Shown here one piece after another: positions 10,127 to 46,206 of a stretch of 64,000 bases of DNA; the first letter of the stretch is position 1; the number at the start of each line of letters is the position of its first letter. The translations under genes and the position numbers were made by a program. Under the pieces are notes generated by a model, which saw only the letters and a program-made list of their open reading frames with translations, was not told where the DNA came from and made no database searches. This DNA comes from a virus (taxonomy: Duplodnaviria; Caudoviricetes), in IMG/VR virus record IMGVR_UViG_3300033405_000003, one strand, 5' to 3'.

Positions 10127-10690
10127 TTACTTAACCATCGAATACAGGAGCGCAGTTCCCCCGAGGACGCCGAGCCCCACGAGGACGTACTTCGCGATCT
10201 TCACCGTCTCCTCGTGCTCCTTCGCGGTCCGGTCGACCTGGTCGAGCGTGCGCGTGGCCCTGTCGCGCACGGCCGCGATGGATCTCCGCGCCTCCGCCGC
10301 CGCCAGCGTCGCCTCGTCGGCGGCCGTGGACGCTTTCTGCGTCACCTCGCCGAACGGCTTGAAGCTCGGCAAGCCGCTCGAGACTCCCTGGCTCAAGTTC
10401 TTCCACGCGCCCTCCGCCGCGGTTCCGAGCGTCCCGAGCTTCTCCCCGAATTTCTCGGCCCACTCCCGGCCGTATTGCGGCAAGGAGCCGAGGTCGAGGC
10501 CGGCGAACTCCGGCCCGTGGGGCCAGGCGTAGTCGGCGCTCCACCCGGGGTGCTCCGGGCCGTTCCACCACTCGAGCGGCGGTGGGCCGTCGTGGAGGAC
10601 GTACCGCTGGGGATCGTACGGGTGCCCGAACGCCCACCCCCACTCGTCAGGGGGCGCGTAGCAGGGATAGGCATAGGGTCCGTACATCAT
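10127..10690 (-). CDS. membrane protein with aromatic N-terminal leader and C-terminal TM
   Basis: Y/W/P-rich leader ending EFAG, coiled coil, TM helix. Confidence 0.75.
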   Translation of the reverse strand: MMYGPYAYPCYAPPDEWGWAFGHPYDPQRYVLHDGPPPLEWWNGPEHPGWSADYAWPHGPEFAGLDLGSLPQYGREWAEKFGEKLGTLGTAAEGAWKNLSQGVSSGLPSFKPFGEVTQKASTAADEATLAAAEARRSIAAVRDRATRTLDQVDRTAKEHEETVKIAKYVLVGLGVLGGTALLYSMVK

Positions 10691-10696
10691 GCGCTG

Positions 10697-11008
10697 TTAC
10701 CAGCGGCGGAAGTGCTCGCGCTCGCGGCCCTCGTGGCCCCAGCCCTCGTGCTCGTGCTCGTGGCCCCAGCCGCGGCCCCAGCCGCCGTGCTCCCAGCCCG
10801 TGAACTCGCCCTTCGCGGCCAGCATCCCGATGGGCCTGCCGGTCTCGGCCATCGCGTACCCGGCCACCATCGTGGCGCCGCCGCCCACGGCCGCGTACTT
10901 GAGGATCTTGCCCCAGTCGAGGCCGCGCGCGCGCTTGCGTCCGAAGATAAAGCTCGCGACCGTCCCGATGCCCGCGCCCACGAGGGCTGCCTTCTTGTAA
11001 TCGACCAT
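10697..11008 (-). CDS. small 2-TM protein with W/H/E/R tail
   Basis: Two Gly/Ala-rich TMs; FTG-WEHGGWGRGWGHEHEHE. Confidence 0.75.
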   Translation of the reverse strand: MVDYKKAALVGAGIGTVASFIFGRKRARGLDWGKILKYAAVGGGATMVAGYAMAETGRPIGMLAAKGEFTGWEHGGWGRGWGHEHEHEGWGHEGREREHFRRW

Positions 11009-11047
11009 GATGAGTTCTCCTTGTTCTTGATTTGAGAATTGTTTCGT

Positions 11048-11461
11048 CTACCACCAGCGGCGCTCGTGGTGGCGTTCCCACGGGCGCTCGCGCCACTCCT
11101 CGCGACGCTCCCACGGTTCCCAGCCCGCCCTCGGCGCGGGCAGGGGGCGCGGCCCTTCGAGGCGGTCCAGCATGGACAGGGACTTCTCGGGGTTCTTCGT
11201 GCCCATCACCGTGAGCGCGAGCCACCCGAGGCCGAGCGCGCCTCCCCAGAAAGGGCTCCGCTTGTAGACGCCGTACACGATGAGCCCCGCGCCGAGGTCA
11301 GCCGTGAGCGCGCCGCCGGTCGTCCACGACTGGAACTCGGCCTTGTGGGCTTCGCTCGGCGTCGCCGCGACGGCCTGCGAGGAGCGCCTCTCGATCATGC
11401 TGCCGGCGATGCTGAGCGCGATGCCTGTCTTGATGAACGGGAAGTCTTTTTCTTCGAGCAT
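11048..11461 (-). CDS. membrane protein with W/E/R tail
   Basis: Start MLEEKDF; RAG-WEPWERREEW...RRWW. Confidence 0.7.
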   Translation of the reverse strand: MLEEKDFPFIKTGIALSIAGSMIERRSSQAVAATPSEAHKAEFQSWTTGGALTADLGAGLIVYGVYKRSPFWGGALGLGWLALTVMGTKNPEKSLSMLDRLEGPRPLPAPRAGWEPWERREEWRERPWERHHERRWW

Positions 11462-11472
11462 GTTCTTTCTCC

Positions 11473-11757
11473 TCAACGCGTGCGTGTGTGGTGCGCGTGA
11501 CGCATGCGGCGGCGGCGCCTCGCGAGAGAGGTCCTCGAGAGCGGGCCGTGGTGGTGCTTGAGGCCGCGCACGTTGAGCGCGAACTGGGCCATGTGCCCGA
11601 CGTGGCCGCCCTTGTGGACCTCCTTCTCGAGTTCGCGCGTCGGGATGTGCTCGCCGGGGGCGTAGCCCATCGCACGGTGGAGCGCTCCCTTGTGCTTCTT
11701 GACGCCGGTCGGCCCGATCCACTTGTACGGGCGCTTCTTCTTCCTCGCCATCGTCAT
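11473..11757 (-). CDS. small basic phage protein (putative DNA-binding/core)
   Basis: KWI...KGALHRAMG...GEHIP; Arg/His-rich tail. Confidence 0.7.
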   Translation of the reverse strand: MTMARKKKRPYKWIGPTGVKKHKGALHRAMGYAPGEHIPTRELEKEVHKGGHVGHMAQFALNVRGLKHHHGPLSRTSLARRRRRMRHAHHTRTR

Positions 11758-12350: not shown

Positions 12351-12351
12351 G

Positions 12352-12873: not shown

Positions 12874-12874
12874 C

Positions 12875-13630: not shown

Positions 13631-13631
13631 G

Positions 13632-15269
13632 TCAGAGCCCGTGTCCCCAGCCGCCGAAGCTCCCCCAGCTCCCGTAGCCGCCGAGCCCACCGAGGCCGCC
13701 CTCGCCGATGTAGCCGTAGCCGCCGTAGTCGCCGGTGGGCTGCATCGGGTAGTAGGCGCTGCCGCCCGACGGCTCGTGCGGCGGGTAGTACGCGCCCCCC
13801 TGGAGCCCTTGCTGCGGGAAGTACGAATACTCGTCTCCTGGCGCGGGCCACCAACCTTGCGCGACTTCGGTGCCTGCTTGCGCTCCGGCGTCCGTGGCGG
13901 CATCGGTCCCCGCGGCGCCCGGTAGCGCTGTCGCCGCCATCGCGCCCCCACCGCCGATGGGTATCCCGACGGGCGTCTGCGCTTCCATTGACTGGTCGTC
14001 TTGGTCCATCGGCGGCTGCGGCTGCTGCATCGGCTGCTGCATCGGGTGCCGATGATGGTGGCGGCGGTGGTGGTGTCGCATCATCTCGGCCTGCTGTTGC
14101 TCAGCGAGCTGCTCCGGCGTCAGGTGACGCCGGTGATGGCGACGGTGCATGGGAGGCATCTCCTCCTCCATCTCGCCCGGGAAACCCTGCTGCGGCATCA
14201 TCCCGCGACCACGGCCGAAATGTTCGTGCTCGCGTCCGCGGCCAAAATGTTCGTGCTCACGCCCACGACCGAATTGTGGGTGGCCGTGGCCGAATTGCTC
14301 GTGCCCGCGTCCACCGTGGCCGAACTGCTCGTGTCCGCGGCCAAACTGTTCGTGCCCGCGCCCGTGCTCGTGGCCGTTCCAGCCCGTAGCGATGGGTCCC
14401 CAGCCTGCGGCTTCAGGCACGACGACTTCCTCGACGACGGGCGGGTGCCAGTGGTGGTGATGGTGGTGGCGCCAGCGTCCGAACTCGTCCCAGTAACCGA
14501 CAACCTCGGGCACGACGACTTCATCGACGACGGGCGGGTGCCAGTGGTGGTGATGATGATGGCGCCAGCGTCCGAACTCGTCCCAGTAGCCGACCACGTG
14601 GGGCGCCGCGCCTTGGCCGAGCGCCTCCATGCGGAGCGCCTTCGCGGTCTCCTGGTCGAGCATCCCCGACGTCGGCAGGTGCACCTCGGCCTGGAAGATG
14701 GTGATGAGGTGCGCGGTCTCCGCGTCGAGCACGTTGGTGATGGGGAGCGGCAGCGGGACGCCCTCGACGTGGAGGTGCCCCTGGCGCGTCGCGAGCACGT
14801 TGAGGAGCACCTGCGCCTCGCACGGCGTCATGGGCGAGTCGATCGGGACAGCGCCTGCCGGCGGTGCGGCGGCTGCGACCCCTTCGATCTGCTTCTTGTG
14901 GAGGTCGACGTCGCTGGCTCCGGTCGCCATCGCCTCGCCGACGGCGTTCGCCTTCGCGGCGAGCGCGAGCGCGCTGTTCTCGTTGCCGAGCGCGCTCTGC
15001 GCGACCGCGTGCGCCGCGATCTTCTTCGGGTCCGTCTCGGTCGTGAGCAGGGTGTTCACCTGCTTGACCTGGTCGGTCGACATGTGCGGGTCGAGCGCCA
15101 CCGTGGGACTCGGTGTCGGCACGCTCGTCACCTTGACCTTCTCGAGCGCGACGACCTTGTCGGCCGGCGTCGCGAGGAGGCGGGCGAAGGGCGACCACGC
15201 CGGGTTCTTGTCCTTCTCGTAGAGGTAGAAGACGACGCCGCCGAGGATCAGGATCGGGATCGGTCCCAT
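13632..15269 (-). CDS. N-anchored PG-binding protein with His/Gly/Arg repeat region
   Basis: Start MGPIPILILGG after GGAGG; IFQAEVHLPTSGMLDQET; GRGHEQF repeats. Confidence 0.8.
   Translation of the reverse strand: MGPIPILILGGVVFYLYEKDKNPAWSPFARLLATPADKVVALEKVKVTSVPTPSPTVALDPHMSTDQVKQVNTLLTTETDPKKIAAHAVAQSALGNENSALALAAKANAVGEAMATGASDVDLHKKQIEGVAAAAPPAGAVPIDSPMTPCEAQVLLNVLATRQGHLHVEGVPLPLPITNVLDAETAHLITIFQAEVHLPTSGMLDQETAKALRMEALGQGAAPHVVGYWDEFGRWRHHHHHHWHPPVVDEVVVPEVVGYWDEFGRWRHHHHHHWHPPVVEEVVVPEAAGWGPIATGWNGHEHGRGHEQFGRGHEQFGHGGRGHEQFGHGHPQFGRGREHEHFGRGREHEHFGRGRGMMPQQGFPGEMEEEMPPMHRRHHRRHLTPEQLAEQQQAEMMRHHHRRHHHRHPMQQPMQQPQPPMDQDDQSMEAQTPVGIPIGGGGAMAATALPGAAGTDAATDAGAQAGTEVAQGWWPAPGDEYSYFPQQGLQGGAYYPPHEPSGGSAYYPMQPTGDYGGYGYIGEGGLGGLGGYGSWGSFGGWGHGL
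14416..14600 (-). repeat. 93-bp tandem duplication encoding VVGYWDEFGRWRHHHHHHWHPPVVxEVVVPE x2
   Basis: Near-identical units at 14416 and 14509. Confidence 0.9.
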
Positions 15270-15271
15270 GT

Positions 15272-15793
15272 TCACCTCCGCCGTCCGCCGTGGGGCCCGC
15301 CGAAGTGCGGGTGCGGCTGGTACTGCGGCGGCATGAAAGGCTGCTGCCCACCGTCGCCGCCGAAGCCCCCGCCACCGCCCTCGTCGCCGAACTGCTGCTG
15401 GTAGTGGTGGTGCGGGTGGAAATGCCCCCCGCCTCCCCCGCGACCGACGGCCATGTAGCCGGCGTACGGCGGGTGGACCGCGCCCGGGACGTTGCACGGG
15501 CACTTGTAGACAGGGAGCGTCGGGTCGAGCGGGTCGAGGCTCATCGGGCAGAGGCAGTTGCGTGGGTCCGGTGGCGGCGGGGGCGTCCTGCCGTCTCCCA
15601 CGTAACCGTAGTGCCCGACGATCGCGGGGCCCGACTGGACGCCGGCGAAGTAACCCGTCGCGTGCGCCTCGCGAAGGTTCTTCGACTCGCGGCGCTTCCA
15701 GCGCTCGCCTTTGTCGTCCTCGAGCCAACGGTACACCGCGTAGCCGCCGATGCCGACGGCCGCGATGGTGAGGATTGTTCCGAGATCGCTCAT
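15272..15793 (-). CDS. N-anchored membrane protein with Cys/Pro/Gly-rich tail
   Basis: TM helix; GVQSGPAIVG motif shared with 17348..18022. Confidence 0.75.
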   Translation of the reverse strand: MSDLGTILTIAAVGIGGYAVYRWLEDDKGERWKRRESKNLREAHATGYFAGVQSGPAIVGHYGYVGDGRTPPPPPDPRNCLCPMSLDPLDPTLPVYKCPCNVPGAVHPPYAGYMAVGRGGGGGHFHPHHHYQQQFGDEGGGGGFGGDGGQQPFMPPQYQPHPHFGGPHGGRRR

Positions 15794-15809: not shown

Positions 15810-16265
15810 TCATCCGCGGAGCTGTTCGTAGGTGACGTGCTGCGGCATCCCGAGGATGGCCGAAGGGTCCTCGATCTGCTCGTGGATGCGCACTTGGATG
15901 TGGTAGACGGTCATCGGCGGCTCGAGGCCGCGCGGGTCTGGGTGGTAGGTCACCTTGATGTGCGGGTAGACGTCGTCGAAGCCCTGGTGGCGCAATTCCG
16001 CGATTCTCCAACAGGCAAAATCCTTGCAATCTCCGCTACCTAGCGCGATTGTTTGAGGTATATCCTGCCATGAGTCCAGACCGGACGGTCGAACCTTGAG
16101 GACGTACTGCGGCGCGAATTCGTAGAGCGACGGCAGCCCCGGGTTCTCGATGATGTAGTTCCAGTCCGCGACGATCAGGAACTCGAGCGCCGCGCGCAGG
16201 ACGATCTGCTTTCGCTGCACGGGCAGCGACGAGAACGAGAGGAGTTCGAACTTCGGCGTGTACAT
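15810..16265 (-). CDS. transglutaminase-fold cysteine protease candidate
   Basis: GDCKD (Cys), YHIQV (His), EDPS (Asp) in the order typical of the fold. Confidence 0.75.
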   Translation of the reverse strand: MYTPKFELLSFSSLPVQRKQIVLRAALEFLIVADWNYIIENPGLPSLYEFAPQYVLKVRPSGLDSWQDIPQTIALGSGDCKDFACWRIAELRHQGFDDVYPHIKVTYHPDPRGLEPPMTVYHIQVRIHEQIEDPSAILGMPQHVTYEQLRG

Positions 16266-28385: not shown

Positions 28386-28389
28386 GGTT

Positions 28390-29352: not shown

Positions 29353-29374
29353 CGTCTGGCCGGTGGCTCCATCG

Positions 29375-30190
29375 TCACGGGTTCGGGGTCGCGACGTACT
29401 GGACCGTCACGGTGGCGGTGCCCGCCACCGGGGCCCCCGCGATCGTGACCTGCACGACGCTCGTGGCGTTGTTGTTCGTCACCTGCGGCGCGTCATACGT
29501 GGCGACGACCTGCGGATCGTTGTCCGTCGCCGACATCATGAGGTTCGGGATCGTGGTCGATCCGATCTGGATCGTGGCGCCCGGCGAGTAGGCCGTCGTC
29601 ACGTTGAGCGTGGCGCGCAGGATGGTAGCTCCGACAGGGATGCTCGTCACCGAGTCGGTGGTGGCAGCGGTCGCAACCCCGAACTGGATCACCTGCACCG
29701 CACCGGGCGTCGCCGTTGCGGGATTCACCCATGCGGTGCCGTTCCAGATGTAGTTCTGGAACGCAGTGAACGAGATGGTCCCGCCCGAGAAGTTCGCGTT
29801 CGGGACGATTTCTCCGCCCGACGGTGCCGGGATCACCGTGGCAGTGCCCACTCCCGTACCGTTGTCCCAGACGAGGTCTCCGATCGACGCGGTCGCGCCC
29901 GTGGTCGTCACGACGTAAAAGTGCTCGGCGGCGCTGTTGGCCGGGAGGGCGGTCCCGCCGTTGAACTGCGCTGAGACGATGATCGGCGTGAAGTTCGTGT
30001 CGACGTACTGCTTGGTCGTGAGATCCTTCGGCACGACTGGCGCGGCGCCGCGCACGTTGACGTCCGTGGTGTTCGTCGGGTCCTTGGCTTCGATGGCCGT
30101 GGCACCGACGTCGGCCCAGCCCGCTCCGCCGGGACCCCCGATCTGGAAGAACTGCGACATCGTGCCGGCGAGGCGTGAGAAGAGGCCCAT
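29375..30190 (-). CDS. spike/adhesin paralog C
   Basis: MGLFSRLAG...DLTTKQYVD; C-terminal domain similar to that of 30212..32020. Confidence 0.75.
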   Translation of the reverse strand: MGLFSRLAGTMSQFFQIGGPGGAGWADVGATAIEAKDPTNTTDVNVRGAAPVVPKDLTTKQYVDTNFTPIIVSAQFNGGTALPANSAAEHFYVVTTTGATASIGDLVWDNGTGVGTATVIPAPSGGEIVPNANFSGGTISFTAFQNYIWNGTAWVNPATATPGAVQVIQFGVATAATTDSVTSIPVGATILRATLNVTTAYSPGATIQIGSTTIPNLMMSATDNDPQVVATYDAPQVTNNNATSVVQVTIAGAPVAGTATVTVQYVATPNP

Positions 30191-30211
30191 GATTTTTCTC
30201 TTTTCTTGAGG

Positions 30212-32020: not shown

Positions 32021-32023
32021 GGG

Positions 32024-36132: not shown

Positions 36133-37308
36133 TCACCAGGGACCGAACGTGTAGGGGTCCGCCCACGAGCCGTACCAACCGAAGAACGGGTCGGGGAAAT
36201 ACCCGGGACCGCCCGTCGTCGCGGTCGCGCCGCTCTTCGGGGCTGTCGCCGCCGCGGCCTGCGGGAACCCGGCAGCCTTGAGGGCCCTCGAGAGGCCCGT
36301 GAGCGTCCTCGGGTCGTTCTCCGAGATCGCCCTGTCGATCACCGCCTGCGCGGCCTGCCCGAGCTTGATCGTCTCGGTCGCCCAGCCGGGGGAGCCTGCC
36401 CCCGTCGCGTGGTCGCCGGCGTGGCCAAACCATGACCCGATGTCGTGGAGCAGGGAACCGCTCTCGCTCGTCAGCCGGACGAGCATGTCGTGCGTCTTGT
36501 CGTCCATCTTGCCGGTCGTGGGCAGGCCGAGCGCCTGCTGGAATTCCGTGATGGCGCCGATGGTCTTCGGACCCATGATCCCGTCCTCGTCGAGGATGTG
36601 GCCCTTGAAGTACGCGTTGAGGAGCTGCTGCGCCTTCTTCACGCCCTCGTCGGGGCCCGTCGACGCGGTCGACGCTGGACCTCCGAACGTCTTCGAGATC
36701 ATGTTCGCGGCGTCGGCGATGACAGTCGGCTTCGCGGCGGGCTTCGTCTGCCCGCCGGGGTGCGCGCGCCCGGCGCGCGCGAAGAGCGTCCCCAGCGCGG
36801 AGATGAGCCGCGCGTCCGGGTAGCCCGTCGCCGGGAGGCCGGCCTGCTGCTGCACCTGTTTAACGATCTGCTGCATCTCCGGGCTGATGATCCCGTCGGC
36901 GCGGAGACTGGTACCGAACACTGCGTTGATCTGCCGCGCGGCCTCGCGCACCATCTCCGGCGTCACGGTGAGCGGCGGCGCGACAGGGCCGCCGCGGGGC
37001 AGGATCGGGCGACGCGGGATCTGCGCGGTCATGCTTGGCACCTGCGTGGGCCTCCTCGGGCCGAGCGTCGGGGGAGGCTGCGGGACGCGGCGCGCGGGCG
37101 GCGCGGCCCGCCTGTCCTCGTGCGCCTCCGGCGTCGTCCTTTCGGGGAGCGCCGGCGCCTCCTCGTCTCCCCTCGACGTGAGCTTGTGCTTGATGCGGTC
37201 GTACCACGACTCGCCCGGCTTCGAGATCATGTGGTTGACCGCCACGATCCCGACGCCCGTGGCGACGATGCCGAGTGCGACCGCCGCGGGGCCTGCGTTG
37301 TCACTCAT
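36133..37308 (-). CDS. N-anchored protein with two PG-binding domains
   Basis: ADGIISPE...GLPATG and EDGIMGPKT...FQQALGLPTTGKMD. Confidence 0.85.
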   Translation of the reverse strand: MSDNAGPAAVALGIVATGVGIVAVNHMISKPGESWYDRIKHKLTSRGDEEAPALPERTTPEAHEDRRAAPPARRVPQPPPTLGPRRPTQVPSMTAQIPRRPILPRGGPVAPPLTVTPEMVREAARQINAVFGTSLRADGIISPEMQQIVKQVQQQAGLPATGYPDARLISALGTLFARAGRAHPGGQTKPAAKPTVIADAANMISKTFGGPASTASTGPDEGVKKAQQLLNAYFKGHILDEDGIMGPKTIGAITEFQQALGLPTTGKMDDKTHDMLVRLTSESGSLLHDIGSWFGHAGDHATGAGSPGWATETIKLGQAAQAVIDRAISENDPRTLTGLSRALKAAGFPQAAAATAPKSGATATTGGPGYFPDPFFGWYGSWADPYTFGPW

Positions 37309-37496
37309 CGGCGTTCTCCGTCCATGCGTTCATGACCGCTCACCTTGAAACCTGGGCCGAACTTCCGTCTTGCCTGCGCGAGCCACGACTCGCCTGGCCT
37401 CGACGCGGCGTGGTTCATGAGCACGATCCCGGCGCCAACCACAAGGATGGCCAGCACGAGCGGCGCTGCGCTGGTGCTCTCGTCGTCGTCCGGCAT
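37305..37496 (-). CDS. small TM protein, paralog of the 36133..37308 N-terminus
   Basis: GIVxxNHxxSxPGESW shared. Confidence 0.7.
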   Translation of the reverse strand: MPDDDESTSAAPLVLAILVVGAGIVLMNHAASRPGESWLAQARRKFGPGFKVSGHERMDGERR

Positions 37497-37870
37497 CAGA
37501 ACCTCCCGTGGTGAAAACCATGCCCGAACCCGCGACCGTGCTCGTGGCCATGGCCGAACCAATGCTCGTGCGGGTGCGCTCCCCAACGACCCCAGTAGTA
37601 GGAGGGCGGGTACGCCGGGTAGTAGAACCGGCGCGAGTACCCCATCATCGCGGGCAACAACGTGGCTCCTGGAACGACTCCGCGCGTCGGCCTCGCCGCC
37701 CGCTGCGGCGCCTCTCGGGAAGGCGCTGTCCCGCCGCCGGCGAGGCTCCGGAGGAACGACGACGCGAGCGATCGGTCGCCTCGCACGAGGTAGTCGATCG
37801 CGAGCGCGCCCCCGCCGAGCCCGACGGCGCTCAGGGCGGGGTGCTTCTTCATCTTGTCGACGATGGACAT
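37496..37870 (-). CDS. small TM protein with Y/W/H/G tail
   Basis: TM then FGHGHEHGRGFGHG. Confidence 0.75.
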   Translation of the reverse strand: MSIVDKMKKHPALSAVGLGGGALAIDYLVRGDRSLASSFLRSLAGGGTAPSREAPQRAARPTRGVVPGATLLPAMMGYSRRFYYPAYPPSYYWGRWGAHPHEHWFGHGHEHGRGFGHGFHHGRF

Positions 37871-37884: not shown

Positions 37885-38184
37885 TCAGTGCGCGGACCAG
37901 GGGTAGGTGACGGAGCGCGAGTGGAGCGGGAAGGGCGCGAGGAACCCCGCGAGGTGACCCTCGCTGCGTTTGTGGGATTCTGAGGATTGCCATTGCCCGG
38001 CCCCGTAGACGAGGAGCCCCACGACCACGCCGCCCACGACCCCTTGCCCCGCTGACGCGGCTATGCCGCGCCCGCTGAGCCAGCCGATCACCGCGCCGAC
38101 GCCCGCCCCGAGGACCGCGCTCGTGACGAGCTGGGGCCCTTGGGCGAGGCGTCTGTCGAGGTCGCTGAGTTCGGTGCGCGTCAT
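37885..38184 (-). CDS. glycine-zipper 2-TM protein
   Basis: GAGVGAVIG / GVVGGVVVG. Confidence 0.75.
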   Translation of the reverse strand: MTRTELSDLDRRLAQGPQLVTSAVLGAGVGAVIGWLSGRGIAASAGQGVVGGVVVGLLVYGAGQWQSSESHKRSEGHLAGFLAPFPLHSRSVTYPWSAH

Positions 38185-38197: not shown

Positions 38198-38692
38198 TCA
38201 GTACGACCAGGGGTACTCCGCCGCGAACGCCCACGGCTCGCTCGTCGCCCACTGGTGCTGGCGCTGCGCGGCGTGCGCGTACTGGACCATCGGGTTCGCG
38301 ACCGCCCACGGCCCGTACGGGCTCATGCCGCGGTTCCAGCCCGCCTGGAGGTTCGCTCCTGCGTAGTCGCCCTTCGCCGCGATCGCCGCGGGCGAGAGCG
38401 CCGGCGGCGGCGGGGGCGGCGGGAGCGCCGGGGCTTTACCGACCCCGAGCTTGTCCATCATCTTCGAGGCGAAGGACATGCCCTTCGGGGCGATCAGGTG
38501 GTCGCCCACGAGCACGACGACGGCGCCGCCGAGCACGAGTTGCCATGTCTCGAGCCCGCGGATGCGCCGCTCGATGCCGCCGAGGAAGCCCTTGCCGTTG
38601 CCGCCGCTCTTGAGCGCGCGGAGGCGGGCCATGCGAGCGGCGAACGACTCGCGCGATCCGACCGTTTCGTGTCCGAGATCATCCATTGCCAT
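38198..38692 (-). CDS. TM protein with aromatic tail
   Basis: TWQLVLGG...DHLIAPKGMS; ends YPWSY. Confidence 0.75.
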   Translation of the reverse strand: MAMDDLGHETVGSRESFAARMARLRALKSGGNGKGFLGGIERRIRGLETWQLVLGGAVVVLVGDHLIAPKGMSFASKMMDKLGVGKAPALPPPPPPPALSPAAIAAKGDYAGANLQAGWNRGMSPYGPWAVANPMVQYAHAAQRQHQWATSEPWAFAAEYPWSY

Positions 38693-38746: not shown

Positions 38747-39028
38747 TCAGTACCAAGAGTATGGGGTGCCCACGATGGCGGGACCCGTCTGCCCCTCCAC
38801 GACGACCGGTTGCGTGCCGGTCCACGTCCGGAACATCCCTTCCGGCGGCCCGTCGTCGTCGGCCCCGACGCGGACGGAGATGCCGCCCACCGAGACCGCC
38901 GCCCCGCCGACGAGCGTGACTAGGAAACCGATGCCCGCGCCCCAGAGCGCGTACTTCGCTGGGTCGCGCTTGAGCAGGCCGATGCCGCCGCCGATCGCGG
39001 CGCCGAGGAGGGGCGTCGTCATTCTCAT
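38747..39028 (-). CDS. small 2-TM protein
   Basis: KYALWGAG; ends IVG-TPYSWY. Confidence 0.7.
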   Translation of the reverse strand: MRMTTPLLGAAIGGGIGLLKRDPAKYALWGAGIGFLVTLVGGAAVSVGGISVRVGADDDGPPEGMFRTWTGTQPVVVEGQTGPAIVGTPYSWY

Positions 39029-39423: not shown

Positions 39424-39852
39424 TCAGTAGTCTTTGCTGTTGAAGCCCGGGCGGCGCGTGAACGAGTAGTCGCTCGAGGGCGGGGCCCCGACAGCATGAT
39501 AGAGGGGTCGCGGCGACCCGGCAAAATAGCCAGAAGTCACGACGGGTGATCGGGGGGCGCGGAGCGGGTGCGTGCTCGCGTACTCGTGCATCCACACGTC
39601 CGTTCCACCGACGAATTTGTGCCACCCGAACTGCGCGAGCATGTAGAGGCCGGCGCCCCAGGCGCCGTACTTCAGGCGGTTGCCCTTCGCGGGCTTGTTC
39701 GCGAGGAAGCCGAAGATCCACGCGAGCGTCGCGCCCTGGATCGCGCCTTCGAGATAATTGGGCTTCATCCCAGCGAGCTTGTGGATAGCGGCCAGCGCTT
39801 CCTCCTCTTCTTGAGCGGGCCCGCGGATGTAATCGACGTCTGATTGTCTCAT
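39424..39852 (-). CDS. 2-TM membrane protein
   Basis: Start MRQSDVDY; KYGAWGAG. Confidence 0.7.
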   Translation of the reverse strand: MRQSDVDYIRGPAQEEEEALAAIHKLAGMKPNYLEGAIQGATLAWIFGFLANKPAKGNRLKYGAWGAGLYMLAQFGWHKFVGGTDVWMHEYASTHPLRAPRSPVVTSGYFAGSPRPLYHAVGAPPSSDYSFTRRPGFNSKDY

Positions 39853-39869: not shown

Positions 39870-40628
39870 TCACCACCACGAGTACCCCGAGGGCCTCGCG
39901 GCGAACTCCTCGAACTCCCACGCGTGGGGCTCGCGGCCCCCGGCGAGCAGGCGCGAGCGCTCGTCGAAGTGGGGGTCCACGAACCAGCCGGTCTTGTGCG
40001 CGGCGTGCCGGCGGGCGCGCTGGCGCGCGAGGTCCTTCTCGAGCTGCGCGTTCTTCCACACGCTGTAGATCATCCAGCCCGCGACGAGCGAGACGGCCGC
40101 GACGACGACGACGCGCTTGTTCGAGTCCCACCAGAGCGCGGTCTCGTACTTCGTCCTCGTCGTGGCCTCTTTGACCCTCTCGCGGATCGGGGCCTGGTAG
40201 AGGTCCGTCTTCGCGTAGCGGCGCCCGCCGACCGTCGCGACGTCCTCGGTGTCCTTCGACTTCGGGTTAGCCTGGCTCGCGATCATCTTCACCATGCCGC
40301 GCTTGAGCGCGCGGTCGAGGTTGCCGGGCTCCGAGAGCCACTTCTTGAACGGCACTTCCTTCGGGATTTGCCGTCGCGTCTCCATGGCCTTGAGGGCCCG
40401 CTCGAGCCGGCGGGTCCGCTCCTTCTTGACGAACTCCGAGATGGGCTCGAACGTGCCCGTCTCCTCCTCGGTCTTCTCCTTGCGCTTGGCCTTCGGGTCG
40501 CGCGGCGGCTTCTCGCCCCCGGCCCCGCGCTTGCCGCGGCGCTTGTCGCCGGGCTCGCCCTCCGGCCAGTAGAGGCTGGCCTTCTTGGCAGCGATCTTCC
40601 TGGCGATCTCCTCGGAGAAGTCAGCCAT
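39870..40628 (-). CDS. basic protein with C-proximal TM
   Basis: K/R/E-rich N-terminus, TM, ends SGYSWW. Confidence 0.75.
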   Translation of the reverse strand: MADFSEEIARKIAAKKASLYWPEGEPGDKRRGKRGAGGEKPPRDPKAKRKEKTEEETGTFEPISEFVKKERTRRLERALKAMETRRQIPKEVPFKKWLSEPGNLDRALKRGMVKMIASQANPKSKDTEDVATVGGRRYAKTDLYQAPIRERVKEATTRTKYETALWWDSNKRVVVVAAVSLVAGWMIYSVWKNAQLEKDLARQRARRHAAHKTGWFVDPHFDERSRLLAGGREPHAWEFEEFAARPSGYSWW

Positions 40629-41188
40629 CAGACCCACCAGGGCGTGTAGGAGTAGCCGTAGTGCTCGCGGCCGTAGGGCACCGGCATCTCGCCGTGGCCC
40701 CAGCCGGTCATCTGAAGCTCGCCGTTCTCATTCGTCATGATGGTCGGGCGGCTCGCGCCCTGGCCGTTCTCGGCCGGCGCCGCGGCGTTCTGAGTCGGCC
40801 ACGGGCCAGGACCGAAGGGCATGCCTGCCCCGCCCTTGAAGCCGCCGCGGTTCACGGCTCCGACGCGGTGGCCGCCCGCGCTGCCGCCGAGGATCTTCGA
40901 CACGATGGACGTGCCCTTCGGCGCGAGGAGGTGCTGGAGACCGAGCGCGCCGCCAGCGGCGAGGAGCGCGATTTGCCAAGTTTTGAGGTTACCGAGCCTG
41001 CGCCCGATCCCGCCCAAGAACGGCTCCGCGTCTCCGGGGCCCTGCGCTTCCCGGTGAAGGTCCCGCGCGTGGAGCGATGCCCGGTGCTCCGTCGCCCCCT
41101 TCGGCAGAATCGGCGTCGACCGGCGCGCTTTCGTCTTCATGTACTTCACGCGCCACTCGGGAGAACCAAATTTGAGTTCGGATGCCAT
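40628..41188 (-). CDS. TM protein, paralog of 38198..38692
   Basis: FLGGIxRR...TWQI...HLLAPKGTS; MTG-WGHGEM. Confidence 0.75.
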   Translation of the reverse strand: MASELKFGSPEWRVKYMKTKARRSTPILPKGATEHRASLHARDLHREAQGPGDAEPFLGGIGRRLGNLKTWQIALLAAGGALGLQHLLAPKGTSIVSKILGGSAGGHRVGAVNRGGFKGGAGMPFGPGPWPTQNAAAPAENGQGASRPTIMTNENGELQMTGWGHGEMPVPYGREHYGYSYTPWWV

Positions 41189-41204: not shown

Positions 41205-41579
41205 TCACTCCCACCAAGCCCAATAGTGCGGCCAGGGGACCGCGCCCATCATCTCGCCGTGCCCCCACCCAGCCATGTCGCCGTGCGCCGCGAAACGCGG
41301 TCTTAGGTGCGGCGCCGCCGGGCGCGGCGGCATCGCCCTCGGAGCTGCGGCGGCGCTCCGCACCGGTCTCAGCATCTGGAAGAGCAAGTATTGACCGGCG
41401 ACGCCGAGGCCCAGGCCCCAGAGCGCGCCCGTCTTCGCGCCGCTCTTGTCGCGCTCCTTCGCGTACCCGACCGCGCCGCCCACAACCGCGCCCACGACCG
41501 CGATCTCGAGCATCGGGACGAGGCCGGGCCCGCTCGTGACGTCGCGAGCCATGCGCTCGAGTTTTTCGGAGATGGTCAT
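41205..41579 (-). CDS. glycine-zipper 2-TM protein
   Basis: MTISEKL; MAG-WGHGEM...WAWWE. Confidence 0.7.
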   Translation of the reverse strand: MTISEKLERMARDVTSGPGLVPMLEIAVVGAVVGGAVGYAKERDKSGAKTGALWGLGLGVAGQYLLFQMLRPVRSAAAAPRAMPPRPAAPHLRPRFAAHGDMAGWGHGEMMGAVPWPHYWAWWE

Positions 41580-41595: not shown

Positions 41596-42402
41596 TCAGT
41601 AAACGACCCAAGGCGGGAGCGCGTCGTAGCCGAACGCCGGGTTGAAGGGGTAATCCCAACCCCAAGGTCCCGTCCCCCAGACGCCTGGATATCCCCACCA
41701 TCCCGGGTAGTTGCCGTCCCAACCCCAACCGTAAGGCCAGTCATACCAGCCGTACCAGGGCCATCCGCCCCAACCCCAGCCTCCGCCCCAGCCACCCCAG
41801 CCGCCGAAGCCACGACCGCGGCCAAACCCGTGGCCTCCTCCGAAACCGTGGCCTCCTCCGAAGCCATGGCCTCCTCCGAAGCCGCCGTGACCACCCCCGC
41901 CGCCATGGCCCCCGCCACCTCCGCCGCCACGTCCCGTGAAGAATCCTTGCGTCATCGCGTCTCCGTCGCCGGCGTCGCCGGCGTCCTGCACTTGTGGTTG
42001 CTGCACGATCTGAATTTGTGGTTGCGCGAGCTGCTGCTGCGCGAGGAGCTGCTGCTGGAGCATCAGCATCGCGGGGTCAGGCTGCGGCGGGCCCATGTCG
42101 AGCGGTCCGCCCATGTCGGGCGGCGGTCCTTGGTCGCCGTAACCGGGCGCCTGCGGGAAGCCGCGGCGACCGCGGAACCCACCGCCTCGCCTGCCGCCGC
42201 GGGGCGCCATGTGGCGCGGGGCCCCGACCAGCTCGTCCACGTAGCAGCCCGTCGAGACGTCGTACATCGCGGGAGCGCGCTCGAAGCTCTCCGGCAGACC
42301 AAAACCGTTCGCCTGGGCGAACTTCTCCTGGTGGTTGCGCACGCGCGGGTCGTAGTCCGCCGCGGCCGGCGCCGGCACGAGTGCGAGGGGATCTGCGGGC
42401 AT
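41596..42402 (-). CDS. low-complexity Gly/Trp/Tyr-rich protein
   Basis: GGGHGF repeats, GWGGW and WPY runs. Confidence 0.75.
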   Translation of the reverse strand: MPADPLALVPAPAAADYDPRVRNHQEKFAQANGFGLPESFERAPAMYDVSTGCYVDELVGAPRHMAPRGGRRGGGFRGRRGFPQAPGYGDQGPPPDMGGPLDMGPPQPDPAMLMLQQQLLAQQQLAQPQIQIVQQPQVQDAGDAGDGDAMTQGFFTGRGGGGGGGHGGGGGHGGFGGGHGFGGGHGFGGGHGFGRGRGFGGWGGWGGGWGWGGWPWYGWYDWPYGWGWDGNYPGWWGYPGVWGTGPWGWDYPFNPAFGYDALPPWVVY

Positions 42403-42692: not shown

Positions 42693-45413
42693 TCACCACC
42701 AGTTCATGGGGTACCACGGCGGGTAGTCCGCCGGCATGTACGCGTACGCCGAGTCCCACGCCGGGACCGTCGCCATGTTGAAGTACCCGTACGGGTCCGT
42801 GAACTGCATCTGCCAGCCGGTGAAGTCGCCCTGCGTGATCGTGTCCCCGCTGTCCCCGTTCGTCGTGGCCACGGCGTCGGCCGTCGCTTGGTTCGCGTCG
42901 GCCGTGGCTTGGTCAGCCTGGTCCGCCGCTTGGTCCACGCCGGTGTCCTGAGCCGCCGATGCGTCCTGATCCGCCGTCCCTGCGTCGGTGTCCTCGTCGG
43001 CGGGCGCGCCAGCCCCGCTCGAGGACTGGTCGCTCCCCGGGAGCGGCCCGTCGTCGTTCGACGGCGGCTGCTCGCCCGTCGCCTGCACGTAGATGACGTT
43101 CGCCTGCTGCTGCTCGGGGGAAAGCTCGATGCCCTCCATCTCGCCCGCCGGCGTCACGCGGTAGGCGATGTTCCCCATGGGATCGAAGATCCGCTCCGTG
43201 AGGCATGCCCACTCGCCCCACTGGAAGCACTCCGCGCGGTGGCGGCGCCAGCGCTCGGCGATCCCGTGGCGCCAGCCCGGGTGGCCGAACCCGCGCCACT
43301 CTCCGTGGAAGCGACGACCGTGGAAACGGCCGTAGGCGTCGCGGAACCCGCGCGCGCGACCGAACCCACGCCCGAAGCCGCGACCGCGGCCGAAACCCTC
43401 GTGCCCGCGGCCGAAACCCTCGCGACCACGACCGAGCCCGCGCCTCGCCTCCCCGTGCGCGCGCATCGCGTGCGCCGCCGCTGCCTGGGTGTGCCTCTCG
43501 GCTGCTCGGGCATGGTGCTCCGCGGCGCGAGCTGTCGGTTGCGAGCGCGTCGCCTGCGCGTGTTTCTGGGCGAGCGCCGCGTGCGCTGTCGCTGCGTGCG
43601 CAGCCTCATGGGCGGCGGGTGTCTTCTGCGCCGCCGGGTGCTGCGCCGCCGCGTGCGCGGAGGCGGCTTGCTTGGTCGCGTTCTCGGCGTGCGCGGCGGC
43701 CTTGTGCTGGGGCGGCTGCGCCCCGGCCGCGGCCCCGACGTAGTAAGACCCGACGGCCTCGAAGTTCCCGCACGCCGCGTGCGTCTTCGCGGCGTGGAGC
43801 GCCGCCTGCTGGGCGTGGGCGCCAGCCTTCTGGGCGTGCGCCACCGCGCCCTGCGGGGACGGGTGGGTCATCGCCGCCTGCGCGTGAGACGCTGCCTGCT
43901 CGGCGTGATCCGTCGCCGCCTGCGCGGAGTCGGCCGCCGTCGTCCCCTTCGCGTCGGGGTGCGTGGCCGCGAGCTGTGCCGACTGAGCCTGCAGCGCTGC
44001 GTTGTTGGCCGCGGCGACGCCCTCGTTCACGGCCGCCCCGACGAACTCCGCCGCGCCGACGAAATGACAATGCGGATCGTGGTGCTCGTGGTGCTCGTGC
44101 CAGTGCTCGCCGTGGTGCTCGTCGAAGTGCTTCGCTGCCTCCATCGCGGCGTGCGCCGGCGCCGTGGCTCCGAGGGAAAAGATGTCGGCGAGCGTCATCC
44201 CGACGTCGCGCGCGTCCCCGACGTAATGGCCGGTGCGGTGGAGCTTGCGCCACTCCTCGATCGTCGGCGGGAACGGGTCCGGCGGCGGCGCGATTGGCCG
44301 GCCGAGCGCGACGCACTTCTGGTACCAGCCGTCCCAGTAGGTGCCCGGCATGCAGCCCTTCTTGATCGCGTCGGCGCCGTAGAGGTCCGGCGGGATGTCG
44401 CCGCCCTGGCCCGTGAAAGTCGGCGCCTGCGGCGGCGGCATCGGGATCGTCGGCACGCACGTGTTCGTGTGCGGGTCGCGGTACTCGCCTGGGCCGCACG
44501 GCATCTGGGGCTGCGCGACTCCTGCGTAGTAGCCGCTCGTGAGCGGCACCGGCTGCGGGGGCGGCGGGATGACGGGCGTGCATTTGCCGTGAAAGTCATC
44601 CCAGTAGGTTCCGACCGGGCAGCCCGTCGCCGGCATGATGCGCGGGCCGAGCGACGAGACGCCGTCACCCGCGTAGTACCCACCGGACGCGAGCACCGGG
44701 CTCGGCGCGGCGGACGTGAGCTGCTCGAAGTCGAGCGCGTTCGCGTAACCGTTGCCAAGCTCGACGACGTACGACGACATGCCCGACGGGTCCGTGCGCG
44801 GCGTGCCGCACACGATCGAGCCGGGCCGGAGCGCTGGCCCAACCGGGCTCGAGAAGGACTTGTCGAAGAAGACGCCCGCGCCGCGCGGGTTCACGACGCG
44901 GTACTGGAGCTGTCCCGGGAACGGGCAGGGGCCTGCTCCAGCGAACTCATCGTGGTAGCCGGCGTGGTGGACGGCCGGCGGGAGCGGCTGCGTGGCCGTC
45001 GGCAGGCAGTAGCCGCGCGCCGCGTCCCACTGCATCCCGGGCGGGCAATCCACGGTCGGCGAGGTCGGCGGCACGATCGGCGGCGCGCCGTCGCCGGCGT
45101 ACTCGTCTCCCACGTACTCGTCTCCCACGTACTCGTAGTAGCCCGTCGCGAGCACCGGGCCGGGCGTGGCCGACGTGAGCTGCTCGAAGTCGAGCGCGCT
45201 GGCGTAGCCGTTCGCAAGCTCGACGACGTAGGACGACATGCCCGAGGGATCCGTCCGCGGCGTGCCGCAGACGATCGACCCGGGCCGGAGCGCCGGCCCG
45301 ACGGGGCTCGAGAAGCTCTTGTCGAAGTACACGCCTGCGCCGCGCGGGTTGACGACGCGATATTGGAGCTGACCCGGGAAGGGGCAAGGACCGGCGCCTG
45401 CGAATTCGTACAT
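42693..45413 (-). CDS. 906-aa modular polyprotein-like protein
   Basis: Start MYEFAGA after AAGGAG; duplicated ~85 aa domain, four two-Cys modules, Ala/His helix, GRGFG repeats, acidic tail. Confidence 0.8.
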   Translation of the reverse strand: MYEFAGAGPCPFPGQLQYRVVNPRGAGVYFDKSFSSPVGPALRPGSIVCGTPRTDPSGMSSYVVELANGYASALDFEQLTSATPGPVLATGYYEYVGDEYVGDEYAGDGAPPIVPPTSPTVDCPPGMQWDAARGYCLPTATQPLPPAVHHAGYHDEFAGAGPCPFPGQLQYRVVNPRGAGVFFDKSFSSPVGPALRPGSIVCGTPRTDPSGMSSYVVELGNGYANALDFEQLTSAAPSPVLASGGYYAGDGVSSLGPRIMPATGCPVGTYWDDFHGKCTPVIPPPPQPVPLTSGYYAGVAQPQMPCGPGEYRDPHTNTCVPTIPMPPPQAPTFTGQGGDIPPDLYGADAIKKGCMPGTYWDGWYQKCVALGRPIAPPPDPFPPTIEEWRKLHRTGHYVGDARDVGMTLADIFSLGATAPAHAAMEAAKHFDEHHGEHWHEHHEHHDPHCHFVGAAEFVGAAVNEGVAAANNAALQAQSAQLAATHPDAKGTTAADSAQAATDHAEQAASHAQAAMTHPSPQGAVAHAQKAGAHAQQAALHAAKTHAACGNFEAVGSYYVGAAAGAQPPQHKAAAHAENATKQAASAHAAAQHPAAQKTPAAHEAAHAATAHAALAQKHAQATRSQPTARAAEHHARAAERHTQAAAAHAMRAHGEARRGLGRGREGFGRGHEGFGRGRGFGRGFGRARGFRDAYGRFHGRRFHGEWRGFGHPGWRHGIAERWRRHRAECFQWGEWACLTERIFDPMGNIAYRVTPAGEMEGIELSPEQQQANVIYVQATGEQPPSNDDGPLPGSDQSSSGAGAPADEDTDAGTADQDASAAQDTGVDQAADQADQATADANQATADAVATTNGDSGDTITQGDFTGWQMQFTDPYGYFNMATVPAWDSAYAYMPADYPPWYPMNWW
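44689..45407 (-). repeat. internal direct repeat (~260 bp units, 459 bp apart)
   Basis: EFAGAGPCPFPGQLQYRVVNPRGAG...ALDFEQLTSA occurs twice. Confidence 0.9.
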
Positions 45414-45424
45414 GATGTCTCCTT

Positions 45425-45868
45425 CTATGCCGTGAGTAGTTTGTAGTCTCCCGGAGAAACGACGATCTCGCCGCCCTTCTCCGGAAGAAGTTTCTTCTCG
45501 CCGTTGCGCCCGGGAGTCAGCGCCGCGATCGCGCCCAGGCTTTTCCCGTAACGAGCGCCGGCCATGACCCCCGCGGCTCGGCCGGCGTACTTGTGGATCG
45601 GGCCGGCGTATTTCTCCGCGGCGCTCGAGGCGCGGTAGATCAGGAAGGCCCCGAGCGCGCCGGCCCCGACGATCATCGCGACGCCGAGCCACGGGAAGGT
45701 TGTTTGCGGCGGGGCGCCCGGGGGCGGGGCGGGCGCGATCGGCGGCGCGGTGCTCGCGGCGCTCGGGCGCCCGTACGACTTGATGGCGTTCTCGAACGCC
45801 TGCGCGATCCCGAGCGGCGCTCCGGCGACGTCGCTCCCGTAGTACGGGCCCGAGGTAAAGTATCCCAT
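45425..45868 (-). CDS. TM protein with aromatic leader
   Basis: MGYFTSGPYYGSDVAG; one TM. Confidence 0.7.
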   Translation of the reverse strand: MGYFTSGPYYGSDVAGAPLGIAQAFENAIKSYGRPSAASTAPPIAPAPPPGAPPQTTFPWLGVAMIVGAGALGAFLIYRASSAAEKYAGPIHKYAGRAAGVMAGARYGKSLGAIAALTPGRNGEKKLLPEKGGEIVVSPGDYKLLTA

Positions 45869-46206
45869 CAGGCGCCTCCCCCCTCGCTGCTGAGCGCGCC
45901 GCGGATCGACTCGCGCGACATGACCGCCGACGTGCGCAATCCTCGATAAATGAGATACGCGGTGAGCCCGACGCCCACGACGAACCCCACTTTGAGGAGC
46001 GTCGACCAGTCCGTGAGCGAGTGCGACCCCGGGGCGCGGCTGCCGCCGCTCCCGATGTTCTGCTTGAGCGTGTCCGCGCCCCATTTCCCGAGCCCGAACG
46101 GGGTCGCCATCGGGATCGCGGTCCACCACGGCGGGAGCGAGACATCGAGGCCCGACCTCTCGTCGCCGTACCAATCCCAGTGAGGATAATAGTGGGTGCG
46201 GTTCAT
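45868..46206 (-). CDS. TM protein with aromatic leader
   Basis: MNRTHYYPHWDWYGDERSG; TM ending YLIYR similar to its neighbour. Confidence 0.7.
   Translation of the reverse strand: MNRTHYYPHWDWYGDERSGLDVSLPPWWTAIPMATPFGLGKWGADTLKQNIGSGGSRAPGSHSLTDWSTLLKVGFVVGVGLTAYLIYRGLRTSAVMSRESIRGALSSEGGGA

Follow-up and report, generated by a model that had tools for sequence, protein, structure and literature searches.

Conserved tryptophan- and tyrosine-tipped C-terminal tails in putative particle proteins of a large, undescribed bacterial virus

Results

In a large, undescribed bacterial virus, roughly one third of the proteins encoded by a putative particle-protein module end in flexible tails with conserved tryptophan or tyrosine tips. 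These tails are enriched in aromatic residues, lie at the free chain end, are conserved in relatives, are built from exchangeable short modules and are set off from the protein body at a defined linker/tail boundary. We tentatively favour the explanation that they act as portable docking or sticker peptides, which would tie membrane proteins of the virus to its shell.

The tails are encoded in a minus-strand block (positions 10127-46206) of the 64,000-nucleotide stretch analysed here (the window), which belongs to a 218.8-kb contig and consists of 69% G+C DNA. The virus encodes a protein-primed polymerase, a jelly-roll capsid-like protein and fibre-like proteins, as well as many small proteins that carry hydrophobic Gly/Ala-rich anchors and domains for peptidoglycan binding. 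We infer that this block is the particle-protein module and that its products are present in the particle. No match was found in viral contigs by protein and exact-DNA searches or in phage records by tblastn, and in literature searches neither the lineage nor such tails were found described. For comparison we used related metagenome contigs, comprising the syntenic loci L001-L004, L007 and L008 (GC 60-66%), as well as L006 and the distant L009. Across an entire family of uncultured viruses, each about 200 kb in size, a small vocabulary of Trp/Tyr-tipped tails is kept on numerous unrelated carriers. Among the tail-bearing proteins, Pfam and PHROGs searches revealed no family except PG_binding_1 and a weak CBM_14. 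PG_binding_1 domains are present on the products of genes 18836, 36133 and, weakly, 13632 (genes are named by their first coordinate; all features given below lie on the minus strand).

Aromatic residues at the C-termini

The last 10 residues of 39 block proteins contained 74 Trp, Tyr or Phe residues, compared with 36.4 ± 5.6 in within-protein shuffles (0/5000 reached the observed value). At least three such residues among the last 10 were found in 13 of these proteins (2.5 expected), and 11 had one as the final residue (3.6 expected). Tryptophan was present within the last four residues of 14 out of 40 block proteins (7.6% expected, p = 7.5e-7), and these W-tipped proteins were spread over 10 BLAST clusters. 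The remaining 44 genes of the window, serving as an internal control, showed no C-terminal aromatic excess. The excess was repeated in six related syntenic loci (L001-L004, L007 and L008).

All tails and leaders quoted in the initial annotation were found in the translations at their coordinates, and the C-terminal excess that it had noticed is real. Its description of a W/Y/H/G composition holds for W (2.4-fold) and Y (1.8-fold), but H and G, enriched 1.25- and 1.06-fold only, were ruled out as terminal-specific residues. Aromatic N-terminal leaders are present as quoted, but their overall excess was not significant (44 vs. 36; equalled in 545 of 5000 shuffles). They include a 64-AA aromatic region (10499..10690) of the C-terminally anchored protein 10127-10690, the junction position of which is not conserved in L006, and a 19-AA leader (46150..46206) of gene 45868-46206 that ends in RSG and keeps the glycine in 3/3 homologues. 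The carriers had also been called largely unrelated; this was overstated, as several are paralogues or have common modules, yet Trp tips do occur in 10 BLAST clusters.

Tails without any function, arising as a by-product of composition, from mis-called frames in 69% G+C DNA or through selection by the reader, are highly improbable. False ORFs are common in high-GC DNA, eight ORFs as first read had false, over-long 5' ends (11048, 13632, 38747, 39424, 41205, 42693, 45425 and 45868), and a generic rule for the residue pair before the tail behaved as expected by chance (see below). However, composition-preserving shuffles never reached the observed values, the other genes of the same window showed nothing, the tails are conserved, with synonymous change, among relatives of 56-66% G+C, and high G+C does not favour Trp and Tyr codons. 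A composition or frame artefact is ruled out by the shuffles, the related loci and the conservation of one tail over 20 sequences.

Tail conservation and shared modules

The tails occupy the free C-terminus behind a variable Pro/Ala-rich linker, and orthologues keep the tips (YPWSAH, YPWSY or a terminal WW) while linkers and tail lengths vary. The recurring elements are a YPW-type tip, a WW tip, a [TA]G-WGHGEM module, tandem [IV]QSGPAIVG units and Gly/His/aromatic repeats. Short words recurred across proteins far above shuffled sequences (GWGH 4 vs. 0.1, AIVG 4 vs. 0.18, YPW 4 vs. 0.48), and exchange of modules was seen between orthologues of one carrier. These observations support the earlier proposal of a common tag: the tails behave as portable tags, in that relatives conserve them, variable linkers precede them at the free C-terminus, and identical short modules recur on different carriers. 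The best-kept positions were aromatic residues (0.60) and Gly (0.57), each compared with 0.42, a measure that is not tail-specific, since aromatic residues outside the tails are also better conserved than other residues.

YPW tips close some of the tails. Gene 18193-18666 ends in SYPWAA (18196..18213), with YPWA present in 4/4 orthologues and the TAG junction not kept. In gene 37885-38184 the tail (37888..37944) has 19 AA after LAG and ends in YPWSAH, and in gene 38198-38632 (38201..38338) it has 46 AA after QAG and ends in YPWSY, with AG-WN in 6/6 orthologues. Terminal WW is found in the W/R/E-rich tail of gene 11048-11461 (11051..11122; 24 AA after RAG, ending in RRWW), in that of gene 39870-40628 (39873..39986; 38 AA after KTG, ending in SWW), for which the WW tip is kept and tail length varies by >100 AA, and in that of the 906-AA modular protein 42693-45413 (42696..42815; 40 AA after FTG, ending in NWW), for which F[TA]G-WQ occurs in 5/5 aligned orthologues. 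The WGHGEM module follows MTG in gene 40628-41149 (40631..40702, ending in PWWV) and MAG in gene 41205-41579 (41208..41267, ending in WWE); in 3-4 of 6 orthologues of the latter, other modules stand in its place.

Low-complexity tails include the 111-AA Gly/His/Phe/Trp domain of gene 41596-42402 (41599..41931), which starts after FTG, ends in PWVVY and has [FYL]TG-R in 6/6 orthologues, the Tyr/Pro then His/Gly/Phe-rich tail of gene 37496-37870 (37499..37624), and the long His/Gly/Trp/Phe-rich region of gene 13632-15275 (13635..14402), whose GWGHGL ending is the same in the L006 orthologue. The tail of gene 10697-11008 (10700..10795) consists of 32 GW/His/Glu-rich residues after FTG and ends in RRW; its L006 orthologue keeps LTG-W. 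Gene 18836-20524 has 30 AA after RAG, ending in QWCYY (18839..18928), and the PG-binding protein 36133-37308 has a 25-AA tail (36136..36210) ending in FGPW, with a Trp tip in 7/7 family members and a partly kept junction. The tip TPYSWY of gene 38747-39022 (38750..38767) directly follows GPAIVG. In gene 39424-39768 the 34-AA tail (39427..39528) ends in a conserved block starting with DYSFTRRPGF, and its junction G is found in 5/5 orthologues, with S, K or R at P2.

Viral fusion proteins contain Trp-rich membrane-proximal regions that, like Trp/Pro/Arg antimicrobial peptides, partition into the membrane interface. By analogy, the Trp/Tyr/Pro/Arg-rich ends might be membrane- or envelope-active peptides for entry or exit that partition into the host-membrane interface and work together with the PG-binding domains on the same proteins. 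This would fit the tails on PG_binding_1 proteins (18836 and 36133, and weakly 13632) as well as on small proteins with a hydrophobic anchor, the typical interfacial character of the enriched W and Y, and the W/R-rich composition of some tails (10697, 11048). Many tails, however, are acidic or neutral and Gly/His-rich, without an amphipathic pattern, and the strict conservation of tips such as YPWS.H is easier to reconcile with a pocket in a protein than with a lipid interface; we consider this explanation unlikely.

The glycine junction between linker and tail

The initial annotation had placed a [VTAS]G junction before each tail. This generic pattern showed no enrichment (484 vs. 473 expected). 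Within the last 60 residues it occurred 94 times (89 expected), or 2.4 times per protein, so that it cannot define a junction. [TA]GW was found seven times in the last 60 residues against 1.5 expected (0/2000 shuffles), the pattern having been picked post hoc from the same data. At the linker/tail boundary, 8 of 10 families tested conserve a more restricted element, hydrophobic-[A/T/V]-G, frequently with W as the next residue; in these eight, P4-P1 identity was 0.57-0.88 compared with 0.21-0.50 in the 20 upstream columns. Orthologues retained the junction G in roughly 10 of the 15 C-terminal cases. The proposed junctions of 18193 (0/4) and 10127 (0/1) are not conserved. In the 37885 family, for which 20 sequences were compared, the junction G and the YPWS.H tip are invariant and P2 is only A, T or V. 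Conserved sites contain a single G with A/T/V at P2, resembling AG↓X only, and no GG sites occur.

Tripartite sorting signals (LPXTG, PEP-CTERM or GlyGly-CTERM) were ruled out, as the tails end in W/Y tips without a hydrophobic helix and basic cluster after the motif. The C-terminal beta-signal of outer-membrane proteins is a terminal aromatic residue that closes a beta-barrel domain. In the block, 11/39 proteins end in W, Y or F, and the tails are of low complexity and sit on small proteins whose hydrophobic anchors are of the helical type.

The capsid-like protein and the adjoining enzyme

The capsid-like protein 17348..18022 consists of a disordered arm (residues 1-111) followed by an eight-strand jelly-roll-like domain. 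The arm contains conserved RVG/LVG/IVG sites and a Tyr/Pro/Gly-rich stretch. Residues 112-224 were predicted to form a beta sandwich of eight strands (pLDDT about 85). The best fold matches of this domain, all with middling Z scores, were HHIV-2 (8.1), SPV1 (7.4), HCIV-1 (6.9) and P23-77 VP17 (5.8); non-viral beta sandwiches match as well, with GOLD domains reaching Z 7.7. The domain is 100% identical in four genomes despite 16-39 synonymous changes, as would be expected of a hub for the tails. A second, related gene (16269) adjoins 17348; L002 and L006 have no second gene at that place.

Gene 15810..16265 encodes a 151-AA putative enzyme with a predicted transglutaminase/papain-like fold (model pLDDT 93.7) and the catalytic order Cys80-His122-Asp133. 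Among 26 sequences D133 was invariant, and C80 and H122 were kept in at least 90%. No family match was found in Pfam and PHROG even at E ≤ 5, and the best Foldseek E value was 0.015. Consistent fold matches, although of middling strength, were obtained for PeiW (Z 6.2), PeiP (6.1), TglA (6.0), LapG (5.5), CPR-C4 (5.0) and TGase (4.7), with further matches to factor XIII, transglutaminase 2 and 3 and vasohibin (Z 3.4-6.2 overall). The enzyme gene adjoins the capsid-like gene in every lineage examined, namely the window, L002, L006 and the distant L009, and in L002 an intein is located just before the catalytic Cys. The likening of the enzyme to adenain and I7 does not hold for its architecture: its residue order differs from the His-Asp/Glu-Cys order of clan CE and its fold matches are transglutaminase-like, so that the analogy can be functional at most.

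In its full form, narrowed here to a hydrophobic-[A/T/V]-G site, the model of the initial annotation regards both tails and leaders as assembly tags, which the 15810-16265 protein would remove after the glycine during maturation. Cutting of the tails at glycine is a candidate role of this enzyme, and we regard the complete model as rather doubtful. It gains from the invariant G and the A/T/V-restricted P2 in 20 sequences, right at the linker/tail boundary, from the junction being kept in about 10 of 15 families and from the [TA]GW enrichment (7 vs. 1.5). The enzyme combines conserved Cys-His-Asp residues with a confidently modelled fold and counts the proteases LapG, PeiW and CPR-C4 among its relatives, and its gene lies next to the capsid-like gene in all four lineages; the D-[RI]-[VI]-G sites of the capsid arm are kept even in L009, and the position of the L002 intein suggests importance of the catalytic site. 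On the other hand, generic [VTAS]G does not exceed chance, conservation is lacking at several of the proposed sites, and the [TA]GW pattern was chosen after the data had been seen. The enzyme fold also covers cross-linking enzymes, cell-wall isopeptidases and acetyltransferases, L009 possesses the enzyme without aromatic C-tails, and the tandem [IV]QSGPAIVG units would fit repeated epitopes, for binding or as substrates, better than a single processing site. A complex prediction for the enzyme with arm residues 1-60 scored 0.01 and is given no weight either way.

Bacterial spore coats are cross-linked, hardened matrices, and vasohibin-type transglutaminase-fold proteases take off the C-terminal Tyr of tubulin. 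The enzyme could accordingly be a true transglutaminase or isopeptidase that cross-links the Gln-containing [IV]QSGPAIVG units and Tyr/Gly/His-rich stretches into a hardened matrix, or it could trim C-terminal aromatic residues. Its matches to TGase, factor XIII, transglutaminase 2 and 3, CPR-C4 and vasohibin are consistent with this, as are the invariant Gln of the units, their tandem arrangement on several carriers and a composition recalling cross-linked coat materials. Nevertheless, at 151 AA the enzyme is far smaller than known cross-linking transglutaminases, a partner Lys motif was not seen, and Z scores of 3.4-6.2 cannot separate the activities; we hold such a role to be quite unlikely.

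Discussion

Under the docking explanation, which we tentatively prefer, at least 14 of the 40 proteins, from 10 clusters, have a flexible tail with tryptophan or tyrosine in the last few residues, and these free ends would attach to one partner layer shared by all. Our best guess for that partner is the ultra-conserved 17348-18022 protein with its own disordered Tyr/Pro/Gly-rich arm; proteins anchored in the membrane would in this way be held to the shell. The Cys-His-Asp enzyme encoded nearby may act at the hydrophobic-[A/T/V]-G element with which many tails start, trimming then being an optional second step. The HHIV-2 membrane is found 31-62 Å beneath the shell and makes contact only near the pentons (PMC6441041); such a gap makes tethers plausible in a larger relative. 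Analysis of hydrophobic segments and positive-inside charge in the carriers was ambiguous as to the membrane side faced by the tails. This counts against docking, as do the absence of aromatic C-tails in L009, in which the capsid-like gene and the enzyme are present, and the middling, partly non-viral fold matches of 17348.

Complex viruses rely centrally on terminal docking tags and maturation cleavage to build their particles and, to our knowledge, almost nothing is known of how membrane-containing bacterial viruses tie membrane proteins to the shell. The boldest form of the trimming model, which we hold to be decidedly doubtful, would describe a new lineage of large internal-membrane bacterial viruses in which a 151-AA transglutaminase-fold cysteine protease cuts after hydrophobic-[A/T/V]-G, frees Trp-tipped tags from more than 10 membrane-protein families and trims the capsid arm, in convergence with the Gly-directed maturation of adenoviruses and poxviruses. 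Real trimming would mean that Gly-directed maturation has arisen convergently on a different protease fold; otherwise the tails would still constitute a new collection of portable peptides for docking proteins or forming materials. In either case the peptides, sites and one enzyme are concrete and open to work in E. coli without the virus.

The herpesvirus scaffold C-terminal tail is cut at the M-site by the maturational protease, and the T4 capsid-targeting sequence is removed by the prohead protease. As in these systems, a short terminal peptide on several presumed particle proteins is proposed to dock them to the shell, the tag is set off from the body by a defined site, and a candidate virus protease is encoded in the capsid module. 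In contrast to them, there are many tail types here, in at least 10 families of mostly membrane-anchored carriers with Trp/Tyr tips, and the candidate enzyme, whose cleavage is hypothetical, is transglutaminase/papain-like instead of having the serine protease fold.

Adenovirus AVP, poxvirus I7 and ASFV pS273R are Gly-directed cysteine proteases of clan CE with the order His-Asp/Glu-(Gln)-Cys, which cleave several particle precursors at GG↓X, (M/I/L)XGX↓G or AG↓X. The site proposed here likewise consists of a small residue and Gly with a tolerant next residue, poxvirus AG↓X being nearest, but the Cys80-His122-Asp133 order, the transglutaminase-like fold matches and the lack of GG sites set our enzyme apart. 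Encapsulin cargo-loading peptides and other docking peptides at C-termini are also portable, conserved C-terminal peptides behind flexible linkers on unrelated proteins; the tails differ from them in sequence and shell type, in having several tip classes and long low-complexity spacers, and in their membrane-protein carriers. Low-complexity proteins of the sticker-and-spacer type, such as the His-rich, GHGxY-containing squid beak proteins, FG nucleoporins and GW "Ago-hook" repeats, resemble the tails in their Gly/His/aromatic repeats (41596, 37496, 13632) and multivalent short Trp motifs; this likeness is compositional only, without homology, and in the tails it is the chain end that is most conserved.

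With regard to the shell, the single-jelly-roll capsid proteins of the internal-membrane viruses HHIV-2, HCIV-1, P23-77 and SPV1 gave the best fold matches to 17348, which is similarly adjoined by a second related gene (16269), whereas the genome is about ten times larger here and the Z scores are middling. For the 110-AA disordered capsid arm with its conserved xVG sites we know of no counterpart.

Genome context and relatives

The G+C content of the window, which belongs to a 218,816-bp contig, is 64–70%, and from ~5.4 to 57 kb the minus strand carries nearly all confident genes. The codon-model gene call gave 39–40 genes in the minus-strand block 10127-46206, taken as the particle-protein module, with five PG_binding_1 proteins and a RadA-like gene at its low end and fibre-like paralogues at 20850-33706. 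A very Arg/Lys-rich 94-AA protein inside the block (11473-11757, minus) is a possible DNA-condensing protein. Flanking the block are an ABC-type ATPase gene (1214-2080, plus) and a dual-specificity phosphatase-like gene that scores under the Pfam threshold (6797-7297, minus). Seven tandem paralogues of 140–174 AA (46203-49576, minus) form one BLAST cluster together with two copies from the related locus L006. Outside the block, a protein-primed family-B DNA polymerase is encoded at 59325-61673 (PF03175, phrog_11768); the gene before it (58540-61673, plus, for both) encodes a 261-AA ORFan, possibly a terminal protein. The majority of the remaining window proteins matched no Pfam or PHROG family.

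Searches of phage records and a viral contig collection returned no relatives of window proteins, and our literature search found neither this lineage nor tails of this kind described. The 742-AA anchor protein 33898-36126 has 46 homologues (39–78% identity), all metagenomic and from contigs as long as 600 kb. Eight loci around such homologues (L001–L008, G+C 56–66%) and a single locus of a more distant lineage (L009, G+C 64%) were used for comparison. At L005:4625-8435 the anchor homologue has other neighbours, including a large glycosyltransferase gene and a pair of Methyltransf_21 genes, and tail-bearing proteins are absent.

Aromatic excess at the C-terminal ends

All tail and leader peptides quoted in the initial annotation were found in the window translations; eight of its ORFs carry false Arg-rich 5′ extensions, which leave the tails unaffected. 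We compared aromatic counts with shuffles keeping each protein's composition. The last 10 residues of 39 block proteins contain 74 W/Y/F vs. 36.4 ± 5.6 expected (0/5000 shuffles); 13 proteins have at least three there (2.5 expected) and 11 end in one (3.6 expected). The same test on the other 44 window genes, used as control, revealed no C-terminal aromatic excess. Trp occurs in the last four residues of 14/40 proteins vs. 7.6% expected (p = 7.5e-7), spread over 10 BLAST clusters. The excess recurs in L001–L004, L007 and L008 (e.g., 63 vs. 23.3 ± 4.4 in L003) and is absent from L005 and L006, both of which cover other neighbourhoods. An artefact was excluded as an explanation of the tails.

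The proposed W/Y/H/G composition of the ends held for W (2.4-fold) and Y (1.8-fold), the sole enrichments in the last 40 residues, but not for H (1.25-fold) and G (1.06-fold), which are common along whole proteins. Aromatic N-terminal leaders showed no significant general excess (44 vs. 36). The description of the carriers as largely unrelated was overstated, as several groups cluster or share modules (proteins are named by first coordinate): 38198 with 40628; 11048 with 39025; 39424 with 41205 and 42693; 45425 with 45868; and 18836 with 36133 and 38747.

Tail modules

The tails are assembled from few portable pieces. Tips are of the YPW[SA]xx type (18193, 37885, 38198) or of a WW, GW or PW type (36133, 39870, 40628, 41205, 41596, 42693); further pieces are [TA]G-WGHGEM, Y[AV]GA[VN]N...GPGPWP, tandem [IV]QSGPAIVG units, and Gly/His/Phe/Trp or Arg-Gly-Phe repeats (13632, 37496, 41596, 42693). 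Orthologues of one carrier, such as 41205, can bear different modules. In 39870 the WW tip is retained although tail length varies by >100 residues, suggesting that the free end is what matters.

The ten-residue [IV]QSGPAIVG unit occurs singly or in up to three tandem copies on different carriers (window 15272-15793, 17348-18022, 38747-39022; relatives L003:7221-7541, L004:881-3004, L007:5493-5924, L008:5199-5756). Adenovirus pVI has IVGL|GVQS at its C-terminal processing site; the likeness is probably a coincidence. The 906-AA modular protein 42693-45413 (minus) has a duplicated N-terminal domain, a His/Ala-rich helix region, Arg-Gly-Phe repeats and Cys-rich units with a weak CBM_14 (chitin-binding) match; parts of its counterpart are encoded as separate genes in L007 and L008.

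The junction element

Generic [VTAS]G, initially proposed to set off the tails, is not enriched (484 observed vs. 473 ± 17 expected); the terminal 60 residues of the 39 proteins contain 94 of them, enough to place one ahead of any tail. [TA]GW, a pattern picked after the data were seen, occurs there 7 times vs. 1.5 expected (0/2000 shuffles), and an unbiased count of words common to different non-fibre proteins placed GWGH, AIVG, GRGF, YPW, TGW and EFA near the top.

Conservation of the [VTAS]G junction in orthologue alignments was full or nearly so in several families (37885, 38198 and 41596, 6/6 each; 42693, 5/5; 40628, 3/3; 39870, 3/4; all four sites of the 17348 arm) and partial in 41205, 39025, 36133 and 38747. 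In 39424 the G is retained after S, K or R, and 18193 (0/4) and 10127 (0/1) have lost the junction. Twenty 37885-family sequences all have the G, preceded only by A, T or V; the linker upstream is variable, with indels, and downstream A-P after the G and the tip P-W-S-x-H are invariant, with Y nearly so. The four residues ending in G show identities of 0.57–0.88 vs. 0.21–0.50 in the 20 upstream columns (8/10 families), and the tail downstream is likewise conserved. This boundary conservation across families indicates that the real junction element, sited where linker meets tail, is hydrophobic-[A/T/V]-G and not [VTAS]G.

The capsid-like protein and the neighbouring enzyme

In the predicted structure of 17348-18022, a disordered arm (residues 1–111, pLDDT <50), Tyr/Pro/Gly-rich immediately ahead of the following domain, leads into an eight-strand beta domain. 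Internal-membrane viruses supply the best fold matches of this domain, all capsid proteins (HHIV-2, Z 8.1; SPV1, 7.4; HCIV-1, 6.9; P23-77 VP17, 5.8); these values are middling and matched by GOLD domains. The last 115 residues of the protein (17348-17695, minus) are 100% identical in four genomes (orthologues L002:20285-20941, L003:19868-20557, L006:670-1332); the genes differ by 16–39 nucleotides, all synonymous, which points to extreme purifying selection. Other proteins of these genomes are 45–78% identical. Almost the same fixity is seen in the first 40 residues, which carry the RVG, LVG and IVG sites.

The enzyme 15810-16265 is encoded one or two genes downstream and has 171 homologues; neither it nor any of them has a Pfam match. 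D133 never varies, and C80 and H122 hardly do. Fold matches of its model (pLDDT 93.7) are confined to the transglutaminase/papain-like group (Z 3.4–6.2; PeiW, PeiP, TglA, LapG, CPR-C4, TGase, arylamine acetyltransferases, vasohibin). The orthologue L002:21162-22013 has a ~130-AA intein directly ahead of the catalytic Cys (GD|C) and adjoins a LAGLIDADG-type gene.

In L009 (8064-10405 and 16101-18360, for all features named here) the gene order '18193-like, capsid-like, enzyme' is kept: the 18193-like gene is followed by a tandem pair of capsid-like genes and then by an enzyme homologue of 134 AA. Its capsid arms bear D-I-V-G, an aromatic leader and then G-W[ST]HEDFVR open two C-terminally anchored proteins, and aromatic C-tails are absent from the locus.

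Cleavage after the conserved G by this enzyme, as initially proposed, is compatible with the sequences: it fits the boundary position of the junction element, the A/T/V restriction before G and the enzyme/capsid-like synteny. The modelled fold would also permit cross-linking, cell-wall isopeptidase or end-trimming activity.

Possible role of the tails

What the data show is a vocabulary of peptides, conserved, portable and placed at chain ends, that many carriers in a particle module share. Docking is the simplest mechanism: the flexible tails would hold out a Trp/Tyr tip for a shared partner to bind and thereby tether membrane proteins to the shell. The invariant capsid-like protein, with its aromatic arm, is a plausible partner. 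The main functional rival is that the tails act on membrane or wall at entry. In HHIV-2 the membrane lies 31–62 Å below the shell, with contact only near pentons (PMC6441041); a much larger relative may need many tethers. Both terminal docking tags and maturation sites are familiar kinds of feature; the novelty here lies in the chemistry of the tips, in how many families carry them, in having membrane proteins as carriers and in the fold of the enzyme.
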